From an uncultured Candidatus Saccharibacteria bacterium (GTDB lineage Bacteria > Patescibacteriota > Dojkabacteria > SC72): a stretch of DNA of 64,000 nucleotides. Below the pieces are notes generated by a model. The model did no database searches. It was given only the letters and a program-made list of their open reading frames with translations, and was not told the DNA's origin. Of this stretch, positions 34,735-64,000 are shown one piece after another. Made by a program: the position numbers and the translations under genes. The stretch lies in contig CAZSUV010000001.1 in the NCBI GenBank assembly GCA_964610125.1, positions 184,035 to 248,034 of the forward strand, in the 5' to 3' direction. Position 1 is the stretch's first letter. Each line of letters opens with the position of its first letter.

Positions 34735-35961
34735 TTACGATACCCCAGCTAAATACCCTGTACTCCAGCATAATTGAAGGTTGTAACCTCCAGTCGGGCC
34801 ATATACATCAATTATCTCTCCTGCAAAGTAAAGGTTATCGATGATTTTTGATTTCATTGTATTTGGATCTATCTCTCTTATATCTATACCTCCGTCTGTA
34901 ACAATTGCGTTATTCCAATCTCCAATTTCAGATATGTTTAATGTTAACTCCTTCAATATATGGAGGAGTGAATTTCTTGAATCTTTAGAAAGTTGAGAAG
35001 CTTTTTCATCAGGGTTAATTTTTGAAAGTTTGATTATGACTGGAATAAGGGACGAGGGAAGTAACTTTCCTAATGAATTTTTTATTGCTTTGTTTTTTGC
35101 CTCTGATAGATCTTTGGTAATTCTTTCTTTTAATGTAGGGTAGGTGAGTGCGGGTTTTAAATCAATTAAAACTTTTACGGGCGAATTTTCAAGGAGATCT
35201 CCAATTTCTCTTGCGCAATCTATGACTATTGGCCCACTGATCCCTGTATGGGTAAAGAGTAGTTCTCCGAATTTTGAAAAGATTTTCTTTCCATTTTGAT
35301 ATATATCCATTCGGATATTTTTTAAACCTAACCCTGATAAATCTTTAACCCAAGATTCTTTTGTTGTCATTGGAACGAGTGCAGGTTTAGGTTCTATGAT
35401 TTCATGCCCTAAGGATTTTGCTAATTCATAGCCATTGCCATTTGATCCTGTAAGGGGATATGACTTTCCTCCTGTAGCTATCACATATTTATCTGCTGTA
35501 AATATTCCTTTGTTTGTTTTAATTCCTGTTATGTGGTCTTTTTCACTCAGTATTTCTTGTACGTCACAATTGAAAAGAATGTCTTCTTTGATTAAGGCAT
35601 ACATCTTCTCTATGATTTCGTATGCATCGTCACTTTCTGGAAATACTCGGTTTCCTCGTTCTACCTTTGTTTTTATATCAAGTTCTTTATTAAAAAATTT
35701 CAATGTATCTGCTACACTGAATTTAGAAAAAGCATGGTAGAGAAATTTCCCATTTTTTTTGTAACTTGAAACTAAGGTTTTTAGATTGTCTGTATTATTG
35801 GTTATATTGCATCGTCCTTTGCCTGTTATGGCCAACTTTTTTCCAATACTATTGTTTTTCTCAATTAGTAGAATTTTCTCACCTTTTTGTTTTGCAAATA
35901 TTGCAGTAAAGAGCCCTGCGGGTCCTGCTCCGATGATGATTTTTTGATATTGGTTAGACAT
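34735..35961 (-). CDS. HI0933/BaiN-family FAD-dependent flavoprotein
   Basis: IIGAGPAGLFTA Rossmann start and the family hallmark AITGKGRCNITNN. Confidence 0.75.
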   Translation of the reverse strand: MSNQYQKIIIGAGPAGLFTAIFAKQKGEKILLIEKNNSIGKKLAITGKGRCNITNNTDNLKTLVSSYKKNGKFLYHAFSKFSVADTLKFFNKELDIKTKVERGNRVFPESDDAYEIIEKMYALIKEDILFNCDVQEILSEKDHITGIKTNKGIFTADKYVIATGGKSYPLTGSNGNGYELAKSLGHEIIEPKPALVPMTTKESWVKDLSGLGLKNIRMDIYQNGKKIFSKFGELLFTHTGISGPIVIDCAREIGDLLENSPVKVLIDLKPALTYPTLKERITKDLSEAKNKAIKNSLGKLLPSSLIPVIIKLSKINPDEKASQLSKDSRNSLLHILKELTLNISEIGDWNNAIVTDGGIDIREIDPNTMKSKIIDNLYFAGEIIDVYGPTGGYNLQLCWSTGYLAGVS

Positions 35962-38900
35962 TGTCTCTACTATGTTTTCTTCTTTTCTTTACGAATATTG
36001 CTATGCCAATACCGGCAATGATTTCTATTCCAGCTATGATTCCAAACCAAAGGTAAGGGGTTTTCTTTAATTCAATATTTTTCTCAACAATATTTGTTTC
36101 AACTGTAAACCATTCAGTTTCTGTAGGCATATATCCCTGTGTCTCTACAACAAGTTTGTACTCTCCTGGGGTTACAAAAAATTGATATTCTCCTTGTTGG
36201 TTGGTGTATTGAGGATTGGTTGTACCATCTTTTGAAAGCCAGAGTATTTCTTGATTACTATCCTTTGTGTAAAGAGTTACCTTTGCATTCAATATTCTTA
36301 ATTCATTTGTACCATCCTTTGTATATACATATCCGTACGGATCAACTCGAAGAGCCAAAGTTATTGAAAGACTGCTGGTATTATCTTTTGATATTGCTTG
36401 TATTGTTGTAGCGTATGTTCCCTTTACACTTGGGCTATCTATTGTTGCTTTGTAGGTATCTTTTTCAGAATCATATTCCATATTGTAAGTCTGATTGTTG
36501 ACAGTGATAATTACATTTTTCAGATTGGTAGAGTTATTAGTTATGGTGCTTGCGGGGATCTCAATCTTCAATGTTTGGTTTGCATAGGTATGAATATCTC
36601 CATTATCTGTTGAATTAAGTTGTTTTTCTTCTTGTGTGGTGACAACGATTTTTTGATCTTCTTTTAGATCTTGAGATTTGATTATTTTTGTTTGTGGTTG
36701 AACAACTGGAATGACTGGTTCCGGCTCGGAAGGTGTTCCTGGTTGAGTTGGAGCTGTTACTGCGGCTGGAGTTGTAGCTTGTGCCAGTGTTCCTGATGAT
36801 TGATTCCCAATATTATCTAATGCAAATATTGTGTAGTAATATCGAGTACTAATACTTAGGTTGGTATCTGAATATGCAGAGAGTGTACCCTCGTAAACTT
36901 TTGCTCCATCAGTTGTAGAAAGAGGAACATGAGTATTATTCCTCATTAATATGACTTTAGAAAAATCAGTATTGGTTGGATTTTGCCAAGCAAGTGCAAC
37001 GGTTCTCTGTGTTGGTGTAGCTGTAAAGTTGCTCACATTTGTTGGAGCGATGGAATCGTACTTTATGACAAAGGATCTAGTCTCACTGTATGTTCCTGCA
37101 CCGTTCAAGGCTCTTACTTTGATTGTAGTTTCTCCTTCATTTTGAGCAGGAAGATCATATGATGGGGAAGTAGTGAAGTATGTATAGTTAGAGGTATTTG
37201 GAATTGAACCATCGTTTGTAATGTAGAATGTGTCTCCTGATGTTGAGTTAGGATCTGTCCAAGAAATTACAGGACCACTTTCGGTATTTTGTAATATGCC
37301 ATTGTTTGCCCCTGTTACCTCAACTATATCGACTACGGAGGAATCTATTTTCAAAGTGTATTTGTAGTATGTCGTTTTGCTTGTATTATCCTTTGCTACC
37401 AGATGTAGATACCAAATACCATTAGTTAATTCAGAAGTTGCCAGGGTATCGTTTGCTAAGGCTTGTGTTCCATCTACTAATACATCTGCAATTGTCAGTG
37501 TTTCATTTTGATTTAGTAATTTCCATACTCCGAGGATACCGCTTCCTGTATCAGAAGCGATCCAATTAACGGTTGCTGAACTATCTGGATACCAATTGGT
37601 TTGTATAGGGTTAGTTATGCTTGTTATTGAATCAAATATAGGGTCTTGTGTATCGATATTTGCAGCGTATGTTGAAAAGGCTGTGTTTCCACAATTATCT
37701 CTTGTGGCTAAGTGGAAATATGACGAGCCTTCAGTGATGTTTTGGAAGCTAATTGCATCCTCAGATATGAGGTTTCCATCTGCAATTGTGGTTACAAGGT
37801 CTGTTTCTTCATTACTATCCCATATGTACCATGTGTTTTCTATACCGCTTTCGGAATCAGAGATAGTCCAGCTAATATTTGCAGTGGTGGTTGTATACCA
37901 CGCGGATTGATTTGGATGGGTGTTACTTGTTAATGATGATATATTTGGATTTGTATTATCCGTTTTAATATTAAACGTTAAATCGGAGGTATCTACACCA
38001 CCTGTTGGCATATTTAAAATATACAGGGTATATGTATCATCAATATTTGTAACATTCGCTGTGGTTATATCTATCGATATATTTTCTCCAGAGGATATTA
38101 AATCAGTCCATTCGGTTGATTCTTCATTTGATATTTTTACATCAAAATCATTGTCTGATGGATATATATTTGTAGTGCCAAAATATATTACTTTAACCCC
38201 AGAGAAGGTGAGTACTTGATTTGAGCCTATCCAATCCCCTGAAGTAATTTGATTGGTTTGTGCATCTGTTACTGTGAGTGTTCCTATGAATGTTAATCTG
38301 TTCTCATATTTATATGTTGTAGCATTGTAACTGTATATACTTTCAGCAGCGGCCTTGTCCAATGCTTTTACCCCATATTGTATGCTAGTTCCTCGGGTCC
38401 AGTTCCAGTTTGAAGTAACATGCCATGTAACTGTAATGTCATTTGCTGTAGGTGACCCAATTGTAGTGTCGTATGTAATCCCTGAGATATATTCAGATCC
38501 AGATACGGGAGTTGGGAACTGTCCAGTTTGATTTGAACCTGTTGGGGTTATGTAATATTCAATATCTGTTCCAGCGGGATTTTTGATTTGTAGATACAAT
38601 TTGTCTAAATCAGCTGCACCATTGATATCTGAATATTTTGTTTGAATGGTTAATGCTTTTCCAGCATAGATATCCTCTGCTCCTGTGATATCTGCGTTTA
38701 GTGCAGTAGGGGCATAGTTCATTGTAAATTGAGCCGTAGTGGACCAGTTACTTTCATTCTGATATGTGTTACTGTCCCAGAACTTCATTCTCCAGTAATA
38801 TGTAGCACCTGGTTGTAAGGCTGTTCCTGCGTATGAAATATCTTGTGATTTACTTCCATTTGCAACCGCAGGTACGAGGGATGTTTTTGTAGAATCCCAC

Positions 38901-41152
38901 ATAACTGTGCCTGTAAACGAGGAGTTAGTATTTACCTGGATTTGGTAGTAGTTTCCTGTGTTGTCCCCATCTATATCAGTAAATATTGCAGAAAATTCTG
39001 GGGTATTGTCAGAAACTTGTGAGGGATTGGTACTTCCTTCTGTTTGTAGAGTAGAAGGAGTACTTGGGGGTGTATTTTGTACGTTTTCAGCTCCAATTAT
39101 GGTTGCTTTTGATACTTTTCTTTGTGCATATATAACTGTGGTATATGCTGGTAGGTTTGAAACTGAATCTGATGTTACTGTTGCTGAGTGTGTATGTGTA
39201 GAGTCTGCAAAGTTAGCACCAGTACCATAGCTTGTCAAAGTAGCGGAAGGAGCTCCTGAGGTTATAGTTGTTGAATGTGTATGTGTTGCTGCGCCTCCAG
39301 TTGCTCCATATGTAGTTGCACCTCTAGCGAATTTACTGTCTAGAGCAGTAAATCTACTCCATCCTAATGGAGGTAGAGTAGAGGTTATGATTACGTTGTC
39401 TTCAGTTACATATTGGTCTGTGTTTGCCTTAGCAAATACCATATCTAGATATGGAGGTAGGTTTGAACTAGCAGAGACTGTCGCGCTTGTAGAGGTATGA
39501 GTATGTGTACTAGAGGCAATAGTCCCACTTGCTGCAGATGGGGTAGGGTATCTAATGATTATAATTCCAGAACCACCAGCAGCAGGATTTCCTTGCGAAC
39601 CACCACCGCCGCCACCATTACCAGTATTTGCTGCGCCAGCACTACCATTATATACAGCATCATTAGCGCCTCTACCACCAATAGCATATGTAATTGGACT
39701 TCCAGTAATACTAGAAGTAAATCCAGGACCGCCAGCCCCACCTTCCCAACTAGTAGGGGCAGCAACACCAGGACCACCAGCCCCACCACCACCTCCACCA
39801 GCATAACGATTAGCGGCCCCACCATTATAACCTTGGCCAGCAGTTCCAGTACCTCCACCACCCCATGATGCACCTCCACCACCACCTGATCCACCACTAG
39901 CACCCCAACCGTAACCACCACCTATTGCTGTTAAGCCATTAAATGAAGAGTTTAATCCTGAAGATGCGCCAACAACTATAGAATATGATCCAGAAGCAAA
40001 AGCTACATTTTCGCTATGAAGTACTCCACCACCACCACCTCCTCCACCAGATAGATTATCTCCTTTTGATCCTGCGCCCCCAGCGCCAACAACTAAGTAA
40101 TCAATATTTCCAGAGCCAGTTGCGGTAAATGTTCCACTTGAAGTGAATTTGTGTATGGTATATCCACCAGATGTAGTAATTGTTCCTCCAGTAGCACTGA
40201 GGGGTGTAGTTATAGTTGCTTGTGTTTCCGCAGATGTTCCAGTTACAACGTTAGTAGTAGTCGTATGAGTATGTGTAGCTGCTCCTCCTGTAGTTCCATA
40301 TGTTGTATTTGCTTTTGGCAATACATCGTCCAAAGCACTAAACCTAGTCCAACCAGTAGGGGTATCAACATCAAACATAGATATTAACCCCTGAGAAATG
40401 AGGAAAGTATTTCTGTAACAAAGAATAGCATCCTTGTATGGAGGTTGTACTGAAGCATTTGAAAGTATAGTTGCTCTAAGACTTGTATGGGTGTGTGAGG
40501 TAGTTGTCCCATTAGTACCAGCAGAAGTAGATCCGGCTATATTTGTAGTAGAAATAGAAGACGAAGTTGCTATTGCATCTGTATGGGCATGTGAATTAGA
40601 ACCCCCAGTAGTTCCATATGTGCTACTGCCGTACAAGAATTTCCCATCCAAATCAGATGCTCTAGTCCAACCGGAAGGACATGTAGTATCTGCATACATA
40701 TATGTATTTCCACTCCAAGTTAGGGCATTACTAATAGCGGTAGGATTACCATAGTACATGTAAATTGTTTTGCCACCATCAGGAAGTGAGGGTACTTTGG
40801 TCCAGATTTTTGTCTCTGATGTATTGCATCCACTTTCAATCCAGTAATCTAAAGAAGTATTTTCATCACTATCTGTAAATCGTAAATCATTGCAAGTATT
40901 TTGTAGTTTTCCTTCATTAACCAGAGAGAGTGTATCTACAGTTATTAATACATCCTCATTGGTTAAGGTCGAGTCAGTATTCTCTACTGTAACGGGTTTT
41001 CTATATTGCCATCCCAAATCCATCCACCCAAGCGTTGATGGTACTGGTATCTTTGCGAAGGTACCCACAATTATAGTGGAGATGATTAGTGATCTTATTA
41101 CTAAAAGCGAGAGCTTTAATGCTTTCTTCATGAGGCGTTTCAGTAAGGGCAT
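35954..41152 (-). CDS. Giant (1732 aa) cell-surface protein with tail-collar-like and Gly-rich repeats, fn3-like domains and a C-terminal TM anchor
   Basis: Signal/anchor at N-terminus. Three or more repeats of GWTR(F/A)S-LD-KF--G--TYGTTGG--(T/S)H(T/A)H plus three H-x-H-x(n)-LP(P/A)Y units. An 180-aa poly-Gly segment (GGGGGGGG...IIIRYP). Multiple beta-sandwich segments. Ends LWFGIIAGIEIIAGIGIAIFVKKRRKH. Confidence 0.7.
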   Translation of the reverse strand: MPLLKRLMKKALKLSLLVIRSLIISTIIVGTFAKIPVPSTLGWMDLGWQYRKPVTVENTDSTLTNEDVLITVDTLSLVNEGKLQNTCNDLRFTDSDENTSLDYWIESGCNTSETKIWTKVPSLPDGGKTIYMYYGNPTAISNALTWSGNTYMYADTTCPSGWTRASDLDGKFLYGSSTYGTTGGSNSHAHTDAIATSSSISTTNIAGSTSAGTNGTTTSHTHTSLRATILSNASVQPPYKDAILCYRNTFLISQGLISMFDVDTPTGWTRFSALDDVLPKANTTYGTTGGAATHTHTTTTNVVTGTSAETQATITTPLSATGGTITTSGGYTIHKFTSSGTFTATGSGNIDYLVVGAGGAGSKGDNLSGGGGGGGGVLHSENVAFASGSYSIVVGASSGLNSSFNGLTAIGGGYGWGASGGSGGGGGASWGGGGTGTAGQGYNGGAANRYAGGGGGGAGGPGVAAPTSWEGGAGGPGFTSSITGSPITYAIGGRGANDAVYNGSAGAANTGNGGGGGGSQGNPAAGGSGIIIIRYPTPSAASGTIASSTHTHTSTSATVSASSNLPPYLDMVFAKANTDQYVTEDNVIITSTLPPLGWSRFTALDSKFARGATTYGATGGAATHTHSTTITSGAPSATLTSYGTGANFADSTHTHSATVTSDSVSNLPAYTTVIYAQRKVSKATIIGAENVQNTPPSTPSTLQTEGSTNPSQVSDNTPEFSAIFTDIDGDNTGNYYQIQVNTNSSFTGTVMWDSTKTSLVPAVANGSKSQDISYAGTALQPGATYYWRMKFWDSNTYQNESNWSTTAQFTMNYAPTALNADITGAEDIYAGKALTIQTKYSDINGAADLDKLYLQIKNPAGTDIEYYITPTGSNQTGQFPTPVSGSEYISGITYDTTIGSPTANDITVTWHVTSNWNWTRGTSIQYGVKALDKAAAESIYSYNATTYKYENRLTFIGTLTVTDAQTNQITSGDWIGSNQVLTFSGVKVIYFGTTNIYPSDNDFDVKISNEESTEWTDLISSGENISIDITTANVTNIDDTYTLYILNMPTGGVDTSDLTFNIKTDNTNPNISSLTSNTHPNQSAWYTTTTANISWTISDSESGIENTWYIWDSNEETDLVTTIADGNLISEDAISFQNITEGSSYFHLATRDNCGNTAFSTYAANIDTQDPIFDSITSITNPIQTNWYPDSSATVNWIASDTGSGILGVWKLLNQNETLTIADVLVDGTQALANDTLATSELTNGIWYLHLVAKDNTSKTTYYKYTLKIDSSVVDIVEVTGANNGILQNTESGPVISWTDPNSTSGDTFYITNDGSIPNTSNYTYFTTSPSYDLPAQNEGETTIKVRALNGAGTYSETRSFVIKYDSIAPTNVSNFTATPTQRTVALAWQNPTNTDFSKVILMRNNTHVPLSTTDGAKVYEGTLSAYSDTNLSISTRYYYTIFALDNIGNQSSGTLAQATTPAAVTAPTQPGTPSEPEPVIPVVQPQTKIIKSQDLKEDQKIVVTTQEEKQLNSTDNGDIHTYANQTLKIEIPASTITNNSTNLKNVIITVNNQTYNMEYDSEKDTYKATIDSPSVKGTYATTIQAISKDNTSSLSITLALRVDPYGYVYTKDGTNELRILNAKVTLYTKDSNQEILWLSKDGTTNPQYTNQQGEYQFFVTPGEYKLVVETQGYMPTETEWFTVETNIVEKNIELKKTPYLWFGIIAGIEIIAGIGIAIFVKKRRKHSRDNV

Positions 41153-55970: not shown

Positions 55971-56549
55971 ATGAAATATATGGAAAACAAAAAGAAAATA
56001 TATGCATTCATAGATAGTCAGAATATAAATATGGGTGTATTTGCTAAACGATGGAATATGGATTGGGGTAAGTTTAGGGAATATCTTAGAAATACATTTG
56101 GTGTAGAGAAGGCATACCTATTTATTGGGTATATTGATACGAATGAGGATCTATACAAGAGATTGGAGAAGGAAGGGTTCATAGTTATATACAAGAAGGT
56201 ATTGGCTGTTACTAAGGATGAGGTTACTACTTACAAGGGTAATGTGGATGCTGAGATGGTATTACATACTATGATTGAATATCCTAATTATGATTCTGCC
56301 ATTATATGTACAGGGGATGGTGATTTTCTATGTTTAATTGAATATTTAGAGAAGAATAACAAATTAGAAAAGATTATTGCTGCTAACAAGAGGTTTAGTA
56401 CATTATTACAAGGATATTCTAAGTATATATTAGATCTATATTCTTTGAAGAAGGAATTGGGGTATATGAGGAAGGGGAAGAAAAAGGAACAACAGAATGG
56501 AAAAACGGCTCTGAATAAAGAAATAACGGCTACACCTCATCCACAGTAG
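55971..56549 (+). CDS. NYN-domain (PIN-like RNase fold) protein
   Basis: IYAFIDSQNINMG... and ICTGDGDF motifs (acidic residues of the NYN/LabA-like nuclease fold). Confidence 0.65.
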   Translation: MKYMENKKKIYAFIDSQNINMGVFAKRWNMDWGKFREYLRNTFGVEKAYLFIGYIDTNEDLYKRLEKEGFIVIYKKVLAVTKDEVTTYKGNVDAEMVLHTMIEYPNYDSAIICTGDGDFLCLIEYLEKNNKLEKIIAANKRFSTLLQGYSKYILDLYSLKKELGYMRKGKKKEQQNGKTALNKEITATPHPQ

Positions 56550-56570: not shown

Positions 56571-56599
56571 TTGACGAATACCGAAGATTTTGGTAGAAT
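56571..56599 (+). promoter_or_regulatory. Near-consensus sigma70 promoter TTGACG-N17-TAGAAT placing the TSS at or within 1 nt of the hsdS-half ATG (leaderless)
   Basis: -35 at 56571-56576, -10 at 56594-56599. ATG at 56606 lies 7 nt after the -10. No Shine-Dalgarno. Confidence 0.55.
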
Positions 56600-56605
56600 A
56601 CTCTT

Positions 56606-57181
56606 ATGGTTGAATATACAGAATTAAAAAACATATCAAGAATCATTTCGGGATACACGTTTAGAAATGCTGTTATTCATACTCCAACTGGAAGCTACCC
56701 AGTTGTACAATCCAAAAATCTTACAAAAGGCCTGTATATAAATGAGAAGGCGTTATCTTTTGTTAATTTGGATAACGTTAATACTAAAGCTATAGCAGAA
56801 GACGGTGATGTTGTAATAAGCGCAAGGGGAAAGTCTATCGCAGCTGTAGTTAAATCAGAAAGAAAGCTAGTGGTTTCATCATCTTTGTATCTTGCAAGAG
56901 TTAATAGCAATCTTATGCTACCCGAATTTTTGGCCTTGTATCTAAATTCTCCTGCAGGACAAATGGATTTGCAAAAACGAGCTACAGGAGCAACAATTAA
57001 GACAATTCTTAAAGGAGCTCTTGAGAATATAGAAATTCCAAGATTGCCTCTTAAGAAACAGGAAATAATAGTAAAAATGTATCTAAACATGGAAAAGCAA
57101 TCTAAATTACTTGAAAGATGGCAAGAGATAAATAATAGATTTTTTGAAATTACCTTAAATAAGGTTATAAATAATTTTTAA
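56606..57181 (+). CDS. hsdS: Type I restriction-modification specificity subunit, half-size (single target-recognition domain)
   Basis: 191 aa. One TRD followed by the conserved HsdS helical region (IEIPRLPLKKQEIIVKMYLNMEKQSKLLE). Directly upstream of hsdM. Confidence 0.65.
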   Translation: MVEYTELKNISRIISGYTFRNAVIHTPTGSYPVVQSKNLTKGLYINEKALSFVNLDNVNTKAIAEDGDVVISARGKSIAAVVKSERKLVVSSSLYLARVNSNLMLPEFLALYLNSPAGQMDLQKRATGATIKTILKGALENIEIPRLPLKKQEIIVKMYLNMEKQSKLLERWQEINNRFFEITLNKVINNF

Positions 57182-58735: not shown

Positions 58736-59866
58736 ATGAATGAAAATGATTCGAAGATGTTTAAATATCCTCAAAAAGATCTCGCTGAGGCTCTGATGAA
58801 AATACCTTCTCTAAAAGGTATGGAAGTTTTTAGTACGACAGAAAAGGATATATTGGAAAATAAAAAAGTAGGAAGAATATATGTTGCAGATTTCCCAAAA
58901 GAAACAGGGAAATATATTTCTGTATCTGAATATGAGGATTACACTGGGCAGGACTTGGATTTGAAAATTTCTTCAAAAATTAATTTGCGAATAACATATA
59001 TTACAAATGAGGATAAAATCACAGGGGTTGAAATATCCAAACTTTATAAGGGAAAGCTCGATAGGATTAATCTTACAACGTTGTCTTTTAACAGAATTAT
59101 GCAACTTTTGTATATATTTTCGACTCTTGACATTAAATCCGTAGCTAACAAATCTCTCATATTAGATAAGTCTATTGTTGGAGATTCTGATCAGTTAATG
59201 AATTTCCTAGAGCTAGTAGTTAAAGATCCTATAGGCAGAGAGAAAATTTCTGAAGTTGTAAAGAATTATGATCTTATTAAGAAGGGAGACATTGATGATC
59301 TTGTAGATCGAAAATCTGCAGTAGAACTTTTTGAAAAAATACTAAACTCGGAGGCTGAATTTAATAAATATAAATTAGAAATCGGTGTTAAGAAAAATGA
59401 ACAAGTTTGGGAAGATTTCTTTAAACAAAATGATTGGATACTAGGTTCTGAATATGTAGAGATTTTAGATCAAAGGAATATTGATGAAGATGATATCACA
59501 GATTATCTTTTGAAATCATTTGATGGATTTGTTGATATTATTGAGCTTAAGTTACATACTGCTCCATTTTGGACGACTGAAATGAATCCAACCGCGGAGC
59601 TTACATCTGCTACTATGCAGTGTATAAAGTACATATTTGAAATAGAAAAAAAATTGGATTCAATTGAATTCAAAGAGAAATTACAAAGTGCTTCCTTGGT
59701 AAAGCCTAAAATCACATTAATTTATGGAAGAAGCAAGGATTGGTCTTTAACAGAAAAGGAGATGTATAGAGTTTTAAATTCAAGTTACAATAATATTAGT
59801 ATCTTAACCTTCGATTATGTCTTAGAAAGAGCAAAAAGAATTGCAGGAGTGGAACTTATAAATTAA
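58736..59866 (+). CDS. DUF4263-family (Shedu SduA-like) PD-(D/E)xK nuclease-domain protein embedded in the type I R-M operon
   Basis: C-terminal region shows the DUF4263 pattern: EQVWEDFFKQNDWILGSEY (W/NPW-LG box), DYLLKSFDGFVDIIELKLH (D...E-x-K), TAELTSATMQCIKYIFEIE, ITLIYGRS, ISILTFDYVLERAKRI. The N-terminal 200 aa are unrelated to known domains. Confidence 0.55.
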   Translation: MNENDSKMFKYPQKDLAEALMKIPSLKGMEVFSTTEKDILENKKVGRIYVADFPKETGKYISVSEYEDYTGQDLDLKISSKINLRITYITNEDKITGVEISKLYKGKLDRINLTTLSFNRIMQLLYIFSTLDIKSVANKSLILDKSIVGDSDQLMNFLELVVKDPIGREKISEVVKNYDLIKKGDIDDLVDRKSAVELFEKILNSEAEFNKYKLEIGVKKNEQVWEDFFKQNDWILGSEYVEILDQRNIDEDDITDYLLKSFDGFVDIIELKLHTAPFWTTEMNPTAELTSATMQCIKYIFEIEKKLDSIEFKEKLQSASLVKPKITLIYGRSKDWSLTEKEMYRVLNSSYNNISILTFDYVLERAKRIAGVELIN

Positions 59867-59879
59867 TGGTGGAGAAAAT

Positions 59880-61166
59880 ATGACGAAAACAAATGAAGAG
59901 TATAAAAATAAGTGGAGAAATATAAAACTTCAGAAATTAGGAACTACATATTCTGGCTTAGCTGGGAAGAAGAAGGATGACTTTAATACAGGAGAATCAA
60001 AATTCATATCTTATATGAATATATATTTAAACCCAAGTCTCAAAGGGGAAGCTTTATTAAATGTAAGAATCAAAGATGGAGAAAAACAGAACAAAGTGAA
60101 ATATGGCGATTTGTTCTTTACAACATCTTCCGAAACTCCTGATGAAGTGGGAATATCTTCTGTATTGCTTGAGAATCTGGAATGTGATGCTTACTTAAAT
60201 AGTTTTTGTTTTGGTTTTAGATTGTACGATTTCAATACCATTGATCCAAACTTTGCAAAGTATTATTTTAGGGGACAGTCGTTCCGAAAACAGATGTTTA
60301 GAATTGCACAGGGGGCAACAAGATTCAACCTCTCGAAGAAATATTTTATGGATACAAAAATACAAATTCCAACAACAATTAACGAACAAAAACGTATTGT
60401 ATCTATATTGGAGACATATGATAGCTATATAAATATATTGGGAGAAAAGATTGATATAAAAAAGAAAATTAATAAATATTTGAGACAAATACTGTTAACA
60501 GGAGAAAAGAGAATGAGTGGATTTCCTGATGAATGGAAAAATATAAAACTTCAAAAGTTGGGTACCACATATTCAGGATTAACTGGAAAAAACAAAGAGG
60601 ATTTTAATACTGGTGAATCAAAGTTCATTTCATATATGAATATATATTTAAATCCAAGTCTCAAAAAGGAAGCTTTGTTGAATGTAAAGATTAAAGATGG
60701 AGAAAAACAAAATAAAATTCAATATGGAGACTTATTTTTTACAACTTCTTCTGAAACTCCAGATGAAGTAGGAATATCTTCTGTTCTTCTTGAAGATTTT
60801 GGTTGTGATGCTTACTTGAATAGCTTCTGTTTTGGTTTTAGACTTCATGATTTCAAAACAATCGATCCAAACTTCGCAAAGCATTATTTTAGGGGACAAT
60901 CATTTAGAAAACAGATGTTTAGAATTGCTCAAGGGGCAACTAGATTCAATCTCTCTAAGAAATATTTCATGGATACTGAGATACATATCCCAAGTTCTAT
61001 TGCAGAACAACAAGACATAGCTTCAATTCTTTCTTCTGCAGATAAAGAGATCGAAGGCTTAGAAACTAAAAAGAAATTAGTAGAACAACAAAGAAAATAT
61101 CTCTTAAATAATCTAATAACAGGAAATATAAGAGTTCCTGGAACAATAGGTAATAATTTAAACTAA
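59880..61166 (+). CDS. hsdS: Type I restriction-modification specificity subunit with two near-identical TRDs
   Basis: 428 aa. Two about 155-aa TRD blocks that are roughly 90% identical at protein level. Shine-Dalgarno GGTGGAG upstream. Confidence 0.85.
   Translation: MTKTNEEYKNKWRNIKLQKLGTTYSGLAGKKKDDFNTGESKFISYMNIYLNPSLKGEALLNVRIKDGEKQNKVKYGDLFFTTSSETPDEVGISSVLLENLECDAYLNSFCFGFRLYDFNTIDPNFAKYYFRGQSFRKQMFRIAQGATRFNLSKKYFMDTKIQIPTTINEQKRIVSILETYDSYINILGEKIDIKKKINKYLRQILLTGEKRMSGFPDEWKNIKLQKLGTTYSGLTGKNKEDFNTGESKFISYMNIYLNPSLKKEALLNVKIKDGEKQNKIQYGDLFFTTSSETPDEVGISSVLLEDFGCDAYLNSFCFGFRLHDFKTIDPNFAKHYFRGQSFRKQMFRIAQGATRFNLSKKYFMDTEIHIPSSIAEQQDIASILSSADKEIEGLETKKKLVEQQRKYLLNNLITGNIRVPGTIGNNLN
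59913..60996 (+). repeat. Imperfect direct repeat (2 x about 460 bp, roughly 83% nucleotide identity, 621-bp period) encoding the two TRDs of hsdS
   Basis: Copy 1 at about 59913-60375, copy 2 at about 60534-60996. Differences are mainly synonymous. Confidence 0.8.
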
Positions 61167-61172
61167 AAGAAT

Positions 61173-64000
61173 ATGGATACACTAAACTTTGATGAGGCAA
61201 AACAATCACAACTACCATTGGTAGAAGTACTCATAAACATGGGATATAGATATATACCATGTGATGAAGTAATGAAAGAAAGAAGAGGCGATACAAGCAA
61301 GTTCATACTAAAAGACACGGCATTTAGAAAGTTCTCAGAGATTAACGGTTATGAATGTAATGGACAACAATACAAATTCTCTGAAGCCGAAGTGATGGAA
61401 GTTATAGATGAGCTTGAGAATATCCCATTTGAGGGGCTCATCGACACTTCTAAGAAGGTATATGGAATGATTATGCCAACAACGGGTGGGAAGACAATAC
61501 GTGTGTTTTGTGATGGTAAGTATGACTCAAAAAGTTTTAAATACATTGATTTTGAGAATATTGAGAACAATGACTTTGCAGTTACTGTAGAATTTGAGGC
61601 CACAGGAAAAGGGCCAATAAGACCTGACATTGTAGTCTTTGTTAATGGTATCCCATTCTCTATCATTGAAAACAAGAAATCTTCAGAACCAATAGAAAAG
61701 GCATTAAGTCAGCAAAATCGTAATCAGCAAGCAGACTATTGCCCAAAACTTTTTGTATATCCTCAACTATTGATTGGAGCAAATAAAATAGATCTAAGAT
61801 ATGGGACAACAGGAACTCCAAACAAATTCTATGCCAAGTGGAAAGAAAGAGAACTTATAGAGGAAGAATGGAAATACAGAGAAACATTCAAGCAAAAAAT
61901 TGAACAGAAGACAAAAGAAATAATCTCAAAGAAAATCGATACCGAAGTATATCAAAAGATCTTGGCAAATCTAAAGGCAAGCAAGAACTATATTCAAGAT
62001 TTAGATAGAACAGTAAGCGAGCAGGATATCGCAACTGTTGGTCTATTAAGCAAAGAAAGATTGTTAGATATATCAAAGAACTATATCCTGTATGATGCTG
62101 GAATTAAGAAGGTTCTCAGATATCAGCAAATCTTTGCTATTAAGAAGTTGATGAAAAGAATAGAGCAAAGAAGAATTATAGAGACAGGAGAAAAAAGAGA
62201 AGGCGGAATTCTATGGCAAACTCAGGGATCAGGGAAGTCCTTAACAATGGTGATGTTCGTTAAAGCTCTAATAGAAAATCCTGAAATACAGAATCCTAGA
62301 GTACTGATTGTAACGGATCGAAGAGATTTAGATAGACAGATCAAGGGAACCTTTAACGATGCAGGTCTAAAGAAGAATGTAATACAAGCTAAAAGTGGTG
62401 AACATTTATTCAATTTGATTAAGGAAAAGAATTTGAGTGTTATTACTACTTTGGTACAAAAATTTGAGTCTGCAAGTAAGCATCGGGCGAATTTCGTAGA
62501 CAAAGATGAGAACATTTTTGTTCTTATTGACGAAGCTCACCGTACTCAGGGAGGTCAAGCAAATATCGAGATGAATAGAACTATCCCAAATGCTTGCTAT
62601 ATTGCATTTACTGGAACTCCGCTTTTAAAAAATGATACTTCAGTCAAGAAATTTGGGAATTTTGTAGATAGATATACGATAGATGATGGATTGGAAGATG
62701 GAATTATTTTACCTTTAATATATGAGGGTAGGTATGTTCCCATTGTTCAAGATAAAGAAGAAATTGATAGACAAGTTGCAAGAATTTTCTCAGATCTTAC
62801 AAAAGAACAAATACAGAAATTACAGGATGGCCTAAGAAAAGAGATAATTCAAGATAATCCTCAGAGAATTGCCGAAATACAATATGATATTGAGCAACAT
62901 TATATTAGTAATTTCCAAGGATCAGGATTAAAAGCCCAACTTGTAGCTCCTTCAAAATACTCTGCAATTCTTTTCCAAAAATATTTTAAGTTAAATGAAG
63001 TCGTTAATACGGCAATTGTGATTTCTGATGAAAATGGAATTATTGAAGATGAAAATGAACACAAAAAAGAAGTGGATGAGTACTTAAAAGAGATCAAAGA
63101 TAATTATCAGAGTTTACTATCGTACGAAAAGGATGTAATAGAAAGTTTCAAAAATAATGAGGAAGGAATTGAGATATTAATAGTTGTAGATAAACTTTTG
63201 ACAGGCTTTGATGCCCCAAGAAATACTGTATTGTATCTAACAAAAGAGCTAAGAGACCATAACTTACTTCAAGCTATAGCTAGGGTAAACAGGTTATTTG
63301 ATAACGATACGTTGCCTAAAACAGCTGGATATATTATTGACTATTCGGAAAATGCGAAGAATCTTAAATCTGCAATGGAATTATTTGGAAATTTTGATGT
63401 AGATGATGTTAAAAGCACCTTGATAGATGTGGATGAAAAAATACAAGAATTGGAGACCTCCTATGCCATTTTGCATGATCATTTTAATGGAGTTCGCAGA
63501 GATGATGAAGCATATTTACAATCATTGGCAGATGAAGCAACAAGAAAAGAATTTTATGAAGCATTAAATTCCTTTATGCGAAATCTTAGCGAATGTATGA
63601 TTTTGCAGGACTTTGCTGTTAAGTTTAATGATCTAGATTTATATAGAAACGAATTAAAGAAATTTCTCAATTTGAGAAAAACAGCTAGTGTAAAGTATGC
63701 TGATGATGAGTACGTTGATTTCCAAAAATACAAATATTCATTAACAAAGATTATCGATAAAAATATTAAGGCTCAAGAAGCGGAGATACTTACGAGACAA
63801 GTTTCCATCAATGATAAGGAATTGTTTAATGAAATTCTTGATGAGATGGGGTCAGATAAGTCTAGAGCAGAAGCAATTACTTCACAGATACAGAAGACAG
63901 CAAATGAAAAAATGGGCGAAGACCCTGTCTTCTATAAGAAATTTTCGCAAAAGATTGAAAAATTAATTGAAGATATGAGACAAAATAAGCTTTCAGATAT
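61173..64000 (+). CDS. hsdR: Type I restriction enzyme R subunit, 3' partial (runs off window)
   Basis: ATG at 61173, open to the window end. N-terminal nuclease-region motif (VFVNGIPFSIIENK). Helicase motif I TQGSGKSLTMV, motif II LIDEAHRTQ. Confidence 0.85.
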   Translation, partial: MDTLNFDEAKQSQLPLVEVLINMGYRYIPCDEVMKERRGDTSKFILKDTAFRKFSEINGYECNGQQYKFSEAEVMEVIDELENIPFEGLIDTSKKVYGMIMPTTGGKTIRVFCDGKYDSKSFKYIDFENIENNDFAVTVEFEATGKGPIRPDIVVFVNGIPFSIIENKKSSEPIEKALSQQNRNQQADYCPKLFVYPQLLIGANKIDLRYGTTGTPNKFYAKWKERELIEEEWKYRETFKQKIEQKTKEIISKKIDTEVYQKILANLKASKNYIQDLDRTVSEQDIATVGLLSKERLLDISKNYILYDAGIKKVLRYQQIFAIKKLMKRIEQRRIIETGEKREGGILWQTQGSGKSLTMVMFVKALIENPEIQNPRVLIVTDRRDLDRQIKGTFNDAGLKKNVIQAKSGEHLFNLIKEKNLSVITTLVQKFESASKHRANFVDKDENIFVLIDEAHRTQGGQANIEMNRTIPNACYIAFTGTPLLKNDTSVKKFGNFVDRYTIDDGLEDGIILPLIYEGRYVPIVQDKEEIDRQVARIFSDLTKEQIQKLQDGLRKEIIQDNPQRIAEIQYDIEQHYISNFQGSGLKAQLVAPSKYSAILFQKYFKLNEVVNTAIVISDENGIIEDENEHKKEVDEYLKEIKDNYQSLLSYEKDVIESFKNNEEGIEILIVVDKLLTGFDAPRNTVLYLTKELRDHNLLQAIARVNRLFDNDTLPKTAGYIIDYSENAKNLKSAMELFGNFDVDDVKSTLIDVDEKIQELETSYAILHDHFNGVRRDDEAYLQSLADEATRKEFYEALNSFMRNLSECMILQDFAVKFNDLDLYRNELKKFLNLRKTASVKYADDEYVDFQKYKYSLTKIIDKNIKAQEAEILTRQVSINDKELFNEILDEMGSDKSRAEAITSQIQKTANEKMGEDPVFYKKFSQKIEKLIEDMRQNKLSD

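Follow-up and report, generated by a model that had tools for sequence, protein, structure and literature searches.

A gene for a Shedu-family nuclease (sduA, product Sdu) lies inside a type I restriction-modification (R-M) operon in the window, by which we mean the whole 64,000-nucleotide stretch of DNA that was analyzed, and such embedding is conserved across the clade to which Sdu belongs and is not an accident of one genome. Profile matches, aligned motifs and the modelled fold indicate that Sdu is a genuine type-1 Shedu PD-(D/E)xK nuclease with an intact predicted catalytic site. Comparison of Sdu with the R-M proteins encoded beside it across related loci further indicates that the association between the two has been re-made many times.

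The host of the window belongs to the WS6/Dojkabacteria, within the CPR/Patescibacteria, as its SecA groups at 90% clustering with sequences of 'candidate division WS6'. On re-reading the sequence, the 376-residue reading frame was found exactly where the original prediction had placed it, with the four motifs named there (NDWILGSEY, FDGFVDIIELK, ITLIYGRS and ILTFDYVLERAKRI) all present and the same spacings of 21 nt after hsdM and 13 nt before hsdS. The proposed order of hsdS(half)-hsdM-X-hsdS-hsdR was borne out by Pfam, NCBIfam and PADLOC domain matches (Table 1). The hsdM, hsdS and hsdR genes of the host system are all present, co-directional and intact, the completeness of hsdR being taken from a 10-kb Logan contig (L024 in our numbering of loci) that carries an identical operon, in which hsdR encodes 1067 aa and is followed by a gene for a YgjP-like metallopeptidase. 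A half-size S gene 5' of hsdM also occurs at four other loci with the same HsdM family (L001, L007, L026 and L030). The full-length hsdS contains an internal duplication, with halves that are 76% identical and a 300-nt direct repeat at 82% identity; the two hsdS genes were also compared for repeats of a recombination or shufflon type, which returned this internal duplication only and no convincing inverted repeats.

The claim of co-directional embedding in the type I operon was also supported, and no terminator-like sites were found between the operon genes on the + strand. GC content is uniform over the operon at about 0.30-0.34, and promoter-like matches inside sduA are no commoner than in shuffled sequences. 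Judged solely from the gene spacing, co-transcription of sduA with the hsd genes is plausible. A site directly 5' of the half-size hsdS has the top promoter-like score on the + strand in the region, with total matches not above shuffle expectation, and we offer it as the operon promoter only as a suggestion.

Table 1. Features of the sduA-containing type I R-M operon, in window coordinates
Feature	Position	Strand	Evidence or description
Candidate operon promoter	56571..56599	+	TTGACG-17-TAGAAT with extended TG; directly 5' of half-size hsdS
Half-size hsdS, 191 aa	56606..57181	+	Single target-recognition domain; Pfam Methylase_S E = 6e-11; PADLOC Specificity_I
hsdM, type I N6-adenine DNA methyltransferase, 506 aa	57194..58714	+	HsdM_N and N6_Mtase E = 8.5e-97; TIGR00497 270 bits against cut-off of 242.75
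sduA-like gene, predicted Shedu-family nuclease, 376 aa	58736..59866	+	PF14082; PADLOC SduA models
Putative N-terminal sensor domain, residues ~30-130	58823..59125	+	Modelled as five-to-six-stranded antiparallel beta-sheet, then helix
Alpha-helical linker, residues ~131-216	59126..59383	+	AF2 secondary structure; position as in B. cereus/E. coli SduA linker
DUF4263/SduA_C PD-(D/E)xK nuclease domain, residues ~217-372	59384..59851	+	
Predicted catalytic codons	E222 59399-59401; D256 59501-59503; E270 59543-59545; K272 59549-59551; Q295 59618-59620	+	
Full-length hsdS, 428 aa	59880..61166	+	Methylase_S x2; PADLOC Specificity_I E = 1.5e-96
hsdR, restriction/translocase subunit	61173..64000, past window end	+	HSDR_N, SWI2_SNF2 E = 6.7e-72, T1R_D3-like, ResIII

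The original assignment of Sdu to DUF4263 and Shedu, made from motifs, was confirmed by profile matches well beyond chance. Pfam PF14082 (SduA_C/DUF4263) matches residues 220-361 with a score of 68.3 bits (cut-off 27; E = 1.1e-18), spanning profile positions 2-157 of 159. In PADLOC, 17 SduA models match the protein. Model PDLC00385 does so at E = 6.2e-59 over model positions 134-317 of 319 (58%) and PDLC00392 at E = 4e-26 over model positions 7-388 of 396 (96%; residues 29-369 of Sdu), and both satisfy the PADLOC threshold for single-gene Shedu, which is E <= 1e-25 with a model coverage of at least 50% (PMC8565338). No NCBIfam model matches Sdu. A search of the PDB with a profile built from 31 homologues matched only the Shedu structures 8ti8/8ti9 from Bacillus cereus and 8ps4 from Escherichia coli.

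Four catalytic motifs have been defined for B. cereus Shedu by Gu et al. (bioRxiv 10.1101/2023.08.10.552793; Mol Cell 2025), and the corresponding PD-(D/E)xK residues of Sdu, E222 (motif I), D256 (motif II), E270/K272 (motif III, ExK) and Q295 (motif IV), align to E204, D249, E264/K266 and Q295 of 8ti8. An alignment of 71 sequences, down to 19% identity, shows no variation at W234, D256, E270, K272 or Q295, and E222 is kept in at least 90% of them. The AF2 model from an alignment of 31 close homologues had a poor N-terminal half (pLDDT 60), and one built from the 71-sequence alignment, to which members of 19-30% identity had been added, reached a mean pLDDT of 80. The original prediction had pointed to the SduA structures for comparison, and in a Foldseek search this second model matched both E. 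coli and B. cereus SduA at E ~1e-7. The sole low-confidence stretch of the nuclease domain in the model is the segment of residues 239-253, just before D256, a position from which we infer that it is the counterpart of the 'motif II loop' that has a regulatory role in B. cereus Shedu.

The N-terminal 200 residues, which had been described as without a known match, proved instead to form a conserved sensor-plus-linker module. When 1.84 billion cluster representatives were searched with a profile of residues 30-216, 96 clusters were retrieved, 52 of them at E <= 1e-10; the match is N-terminal in every case, in proteins of ~340-410 aa or in fragments. SduA_C was present in 46 of the 46 full-length members tested that carry the module, which on these sequence searches is specific to a small Shedu subfamily. 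Within the modelled sheet the aromatic residues Y49, F53, Y60 and Y88 are conserved, and there is no tryptophan in residues 1-216. The sequence profile of residues 30-216 had no match in the PDB even at E <= 10; Foldseek of the N-terminal part returned weak matches to Pur-alpha.

Both parts of the protein are constrained. Comparison with an 88%-identical orthologue (L038; dS = 0.76) gives a dN/dS of 0.078 for the whole protein, and the values for its two parts (0.043 over residues 30-216, 0.097 in the nuclease domain) point to strong purifying selection on both; by this measure, sduA is functional. Besides the start at 58736, candidate start codons are M8 (58757), M21 (58796) and M29 (58820). 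Gene callers on identical contigs choose M8, giving a protein of 369 aa, and homologues of other genera begin near residue 26-30. Because residues 1-29 evolve faster (dN/dS of 0.27) and are missing from most homologues, the true start of sduA may be M8, M21 or M29.

To follow the original suggestion that relatives be surveyed for insertions between hsdM and hsdS, we collected relatives of Sdu, and embedding emerged as a habit of the clade. The species-representative genomes contain 16 full-length relatives at 45% identity or more: 15 are embedded in type I operons, and the remaining one is cut by a contig end. Six of six further metagenome loci are embedded as well. A query with the single protein against genome contigs gave no relatives, and an alignment-based query did. 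A census of relatives at least 45% identical, taken after a metagenome scan, covered 73 loci and 58 distinct Sdu sequences at 95% clustering. Forty-six of the 58 lie inside a type I R-M operon, one is in a type II system (RadC-D12 methylase ... AlwI endonuclease-Sdu), seven have no hsd hit and four are on contigs too short for judgement, giving an association with R-M for 47 of the 54 evaluable members (~87% or more). The gene orders among hsd-bearing loci include M-Sdu-S-R (16), S-M-Sdu-S-R (5, the order in the window), R-M-Sdu-S (3) and M-S-Sdu-R (3), and Sdu is always co-directional with the R-M genes and tightly spaced from or overlapping them. The members of the clade come mostly from Patescibacteria/CPR genomes.

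A Shedu gene in an R-M operon is not in itself without precedent. Gu et al. counted 602 of 5,499 Shedu genes (~11%) within R-M systems of types I, II, III or IV. The present clade is tied to R-M far more tightly than that. The sample surveyed there contains almost no CPR bacteria; it comprises proteobacteria, actinobacteria, firmicutes, bacteroidota, cyanobacteria and some archaea, and is dominated by the first three.

At least two of the contexts without an hsd hit are clearly not R-M systems. One (L050/L053) is a helicase/toxin-antitoxin island with SNF2, NOV_C, GIY-YIG-Schlafen-helicase and SocA genes, and in the other (L062) Sdu stands alone. As these contexts belong to the same clade, the nuclease presumably works without R-M, and the stand-alone members L050 and L062 suggest that autonomous function is possible.

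The R-M partners of Sdu vary far more than Sdu does. Relative to the window locus, Sdu is 45-61% identical everywhere, with ranges of 25-78% for HsdM and 23-64% for HsdR, and over 22 loci the pairwise identities of Sdu and HsdM are uncorrelated (Spearman rho 0.05, p = 0.41). The HsdM proteins fall into seven families (45% single linkage), which are only 19-38% identical to each other and yet carry Sdu proteins that are 53-84% identical. For 16 of the 22 loci the closest Sdu relative belongs to a locus with another HsdM family; L002 and L010, for instance, have Sdu proteins that are 84% identical and HsdM proteins that are 33% identical. Three architectures (T1R_D3/T1RH_C, EcoR124_C and EcoEI_R_C) are represented among the HsdR partners. 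The uncoupling of Sdu identity from HsdM identity, together with the seven HsdM families, shows repeated moves between unrelated R-M operons.

The range of partners widens further among more distant relatives with the same N-terminal module. At two loci (L017 and L018) Sdu follows a complete type II system with REase_II and a D12 methylase. Taken over all loci, L017, L018 and L048 each have a type II restriction endonuclease and methyltransferase of their own, to which Sdu is an addition. We had considered Sdu as the sole restriction component beside the D12 methylases of L017 and L018, which is ruled out by the adjacent type II restriction endonucleases detected with PADLOC. Elsewhere among the distant relatives, Sdu follows a type IIG fusion enzyme (L036), an EcoRI-type methylase with no recognizable restriction endonuclease (L037), or M and S genes with no detectable HsdR (L023). 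Other distant relatives with the module lie by themselves, either in defence islands or on plasmids, and those on plasmids are only ~23% identical. No relative was found in phage genomes (INPHARED) or IMG/VR viral contigs, and a phage origin of sduA was dropped on these grounds.

The overall explanation that we favour, with somewhat more confidence than doubt, is that Sdu is a self-regulated accessory nuclease of R-M operons with an indirect functional link to restriction. The gene would be a cassette that has entered one unrelated type I operon after another, between hsdM and hsdS or hsdR, as well as the occasional type II system, and that is read from the operon transcript. The N-terminal domain would keep the nuclease off until it has bound free ends, single-stranded DNA or a similar DNA signal. 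This self-inhibition with a DNA trigger is the most likely mode of control by analogy with E. coli and B. cereus Shedu, which provide a precedent both for self-inhibition and for the sensing of DNA ends. Sdu probably need not contact the Hsd proteins physically. A conserved interface with them is unlikely, given the diverse partners, the restriction endonucleases that relatives have of their own and the stand-alone members, and its unlikelihood favours indirect coupling; a conserved physical silencing partner is likewise unlikely from these comparisons. Cleavage by HsdR, or by the type II enzyme in relatives, would turn invading DNA into linear fragments with ends, and Sdu would sense these fragments and nick or degrade them, or else catch DNA that escapes restriction. 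That Sdu acts on the products of restriction is the tentative part of this scheme, and we consider it rather doubtful.

A more far-reaching form of the idea, which we regard as possible though somewhat unlikely, would make the clade a dedicated restriction-coupled nuclease, triggered by ends or single-stranded tails left by HsdR or the type II enzyme, so that the two would form a two-step kill module. Such a module might replace RecBCD-type clearance in reduced CPR genomes, the repeated captures would then reflect selection for coupling, and a sub-clade may have a conserved 116-aa partner protein.

The junction of hsdM with hsdS or hsdR might alternatively be no more than a landing pad at which the Shedu gene gains expression and co-transfer, with no interplay with restriction. 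In related operons the hsdM-to-hsdR interval also holds RhuM, Bro-N, Fic/DOC, AAA_21 with RloB, AAA_13 and Zeta toxin genes, and further DUF3892, DUF4145 and the PADLOC candidates PDC-S13/S32. So many unrelated passengers, defence and toxin genes among them, mark the junction as a general landing pad, and this shared use keeps alive the view of Sdu as a pure hitch-hiker, as do the clade members outside R-M (L050/L053 and L062), the distant relatives alone on plasmids or in defence islands, and the Shedu enzymes studied so far, which act as single genes. A hot spot alone, however, leaves the rarity of the clade elsewhere unexplained. The frequency of association (47 of 54, against ~11% for Shedu overall), its re-establishment as the gene moved, many times independently, into at least 7 HsdM families and type II systems, and the invariable co-direction and tight spacing or overlap all speak against mere co-transfer, which we judge unlikely.

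It is also conceivable, though quite improbable, that Sdu is, as in the model of the original prediction, a guard of the PrrC/RloC kind, a latent nuclease bound by the type I complex and unleashed by anti-restriction proteins as an abortive-infection backup. The strong link of the clade to type I operons and the position of sduA, which matches that of prrC in the EcoprrI locus (PMC12707154), would fit such a role, and related operons carry AAA_13 and RloB-type genes that are typical of such modules. Sdu has none of the PrrC/RloC domains, however, in searches of Pfam, NCBIfam and PADLOC, and Shedu enzymes have an inhibitory N-terminal domain of their own. Near-identical Sdu proteins, moreover, occur with HsdM proteins that are 19-38% identical, with three HsdR architectures, with type II and IIG systems, or alone, which makes a conserved silencing interface unlikely, and the comparisons as a whole lower somewhat the likelihood of an R-M-licensed composite.

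Very improbable is a role for Sdu as an alternative restriction subunit or methylation-sensitive endonuclease, a second 'R' against which the adjoining N6-adenine methyltransferase protects the host: relatives do lie directly 3' of four kinds of such enzyme (HsdM, D12 class, EcoRI-methylase and type IIG fusions), sometimes with no HsdR (L023) or restriction endonuclease (L037) recognizable, and a restriction-like role is proposed for some Shedu classes by Gu et al., but HsdR is intact at most loci, L017, L018 and L048 retain their type II restriction endonuclease, Sdu proteins that are 55-84% identical cannot fit many different HsdS specificities, type I sites are too sparse to shield the chromosome from a non-specific nuclease, and some members have no methyltransferase nearby.

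The frequent presence of defence and toxin genes in type I R-M operons has long called for an explanation, and to our knowledge an experimental one exists for PrrC only. CPR bacteria are, as far as we know, largely without CRISPR. That Shedu genes occur inside R-M systems, type I included, was already known; what is added here, as description, is a clade centred on CPR bacteria that has an N-terminal module of its own, is embedded as a rule and has been exchanged repeatedly between R-M families. The clade offers a clean test case, a compact nuclease with an intact predicted active site that is nearly always in a complete R-M operon and has been swapped between R-M families, and the natural stand-alone exceptions could serve as controls. 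If the coupling is real, it would show innate defence layers wired in series and would also be a main defence module of CPR bacteria; if the two are uncoupled, the clade would be one more case of documented co-location. The locus will hardly surprise a specialist, yet it lends itself well, as a natural system, to the question of why nucleases are carried in type I operons.

The R-M-encoded Shedu genes counted by Gu et al. are the same phenomenon as the one described here, and these authors suggest that Shedu complements R-M (10.1101/2023.08.10.552793); our search of the literature found no experimental test of a functional link between Shedu and R-M. The survey gives counts only, and in its accessible text it describes neither a clade with R-M embedding as the rule nor repeated transfer between R-M families.

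Among characterized enzymes, the SduA of B. cereus B4264 (8ti8/8ti9), placed in 'type 1A' by Gu et al., resembles Sdu in length (382 against 376 aa), in its succession of N-terminal beta-rich domain, helical linker and C-terminal DUF4263 domain, and in the alignment of its four motifs. It also has a flexible loop before motif II, and the low confidence of this loop in the Sdu model is as expected for a regulatory loop. The two proteins are only ~18-20% identical, however, and the N-terminal module of Sdu is not detectably homologous by sequence to that of the B. cereus protein; the N-terminal domain of type 1A Shedu is assigned an sPC4/Whirly fold by Gu et al. B. cereus SduA was studied as a single-gene system, whereas sduA here is internal to a type I R-M operon. 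The DNA-end-sensing SduA of E. coli (8ps4/8ps5), in which a toxic nuclease domain is restrained by the N-terminal domain, has the same order of N-terminal domain, helical linker and nuclease. Its end-stabilizing Trp25 has no evident counterpart in the tryptophan-free N-terminal region of Sdu, and it too is a stand-alone system.

PrrC and RloC in type I (EcoprrI) loci share with Sdu the state of a passenger in an hsd operon, a potentially toxic nuclease and a place in a second line of defence (PMC12707154). They combine an N-terminal ABC-type ATPase with a C-terminal anticodon-nuclease domain, whereas Pfam, NCBIfam and PADLOC find in Sdu neither of these and SduA_C only, and their target is tRNA, whereas that of Sdu is predicted to be DNA. 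By its domain content Sdu is not a member of the PrrC/RloC group, and the operon position alone is analogous. KELShedu (PMC12577705) differs from Sdu in being of another Shedu subtype, in having a small dsDNA-binding protein as its partner and in being regulated by NTP levels, but it likewise pairs a DUF4263 nuclease with another gene in one operon, so that Shedu is not always a single-gene system.

The full-length hsdS of the operon contains an internal tandem duplication, with 76% protein identity between its halves and a 300-nt direct repeat (82%). Because the two halves are so alike, both target-recognition domains of the encoded protein probably read the same half-site, which would make its target symmetric. 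The accompanying half-size hsdS is a separate gene, and this two-S layout is kept across loci of the same HsdM family (L001, L007, L026, L030, L045, and L051). The start codon of sduA is ambiguous; most homologues lack residues 1-29, which also evolve faster (dN/dS 0.27), and on identical contigs gene callers picked M8. M21 has a GAGG 5 nt upstream.

The hsdM-hsdR interval of related type I operons also houses other passenger genes (L002, L004, L005, L006, L009, L010, L011, L027, L030, L033, L047, L061, and L067), including RhuM, Bro-N, Fic/DOC, AAA_21+RloB, AAA_13, Zeta toxin, DUF3892, DUF4145, DUF6602, the PADLOC candidates PDC-S13 and PDC-S32, and several unannotated ORFs. Among the genes flanking the operon, the upstream NYN-domain gene is present on the Logan contig carrying an identical operon (L024) and is not conserved in related operons; L079 has another NYN-domain gene shortly downstream of Sdu. 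A YgjP-like gene immediately follows hsdR in several operons (L024, L026, L030, and L033). Elsewhere in the window, a very long ORF coincides in position with the only GC-rich bump (0.456 at 39-40 kb versus ~0.34 elsewhere).

Locations of features in the window and in loci carrying sduA relatives
Feature	Locus	Coordinates	Strand	Remark
Very long ORF	window	35954-41152	-	1732 aa
NYN-domain gene	window	55971-56549	operon's strand	predicted RNase; directly upstream of operon
Half-size hsdS	window	56606-57181		upstream of hsdM
sduA start region	window	58736-58822		
Full-length hsdS	window	59880-61166		
YgjP-like metallopeptidase gene	L024	9160-9864		PF01863, WLM/SprT-like; just past window end
Unannotated ORF	L002	10301-11647		448 aa; hsdM-hsdR interval
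Unannotated ORF	L012	3882-4796		304 aa; hsdM-hsdR interval
Region with the distant sduA relative and its neighbours	L023	4090-8585		Eubacterium MAG
116-aa ORF	L013	5344-5694		
116-aa ORF	L031	7871-8221		
116-aa ORF	L079	1255-1605		
116-aa ORF	L066, L068, L070, L072, L073, L076-L078			

The distant relative in L023, 39% identical over the nuclease half, comes after genes for an N6_Mtase (792 aa) and an HsdS-like protein. No HsdR is detectable at this locus; downstream lies a 1052-aa metallophosphatase-radical-SAM fusion. In a Shedu sub-clade ~50% identical to the window protein, a conserved 116-aa ORF, absent from the window, always directly follows sduA and overlaps its stop codon. This ORF is 58-84% identical from locus to locus, abounds in YDYG/FSG repeats, and gave no match to Pfam or PADLOC; its product may be a small protein serving as a dedicated partner.
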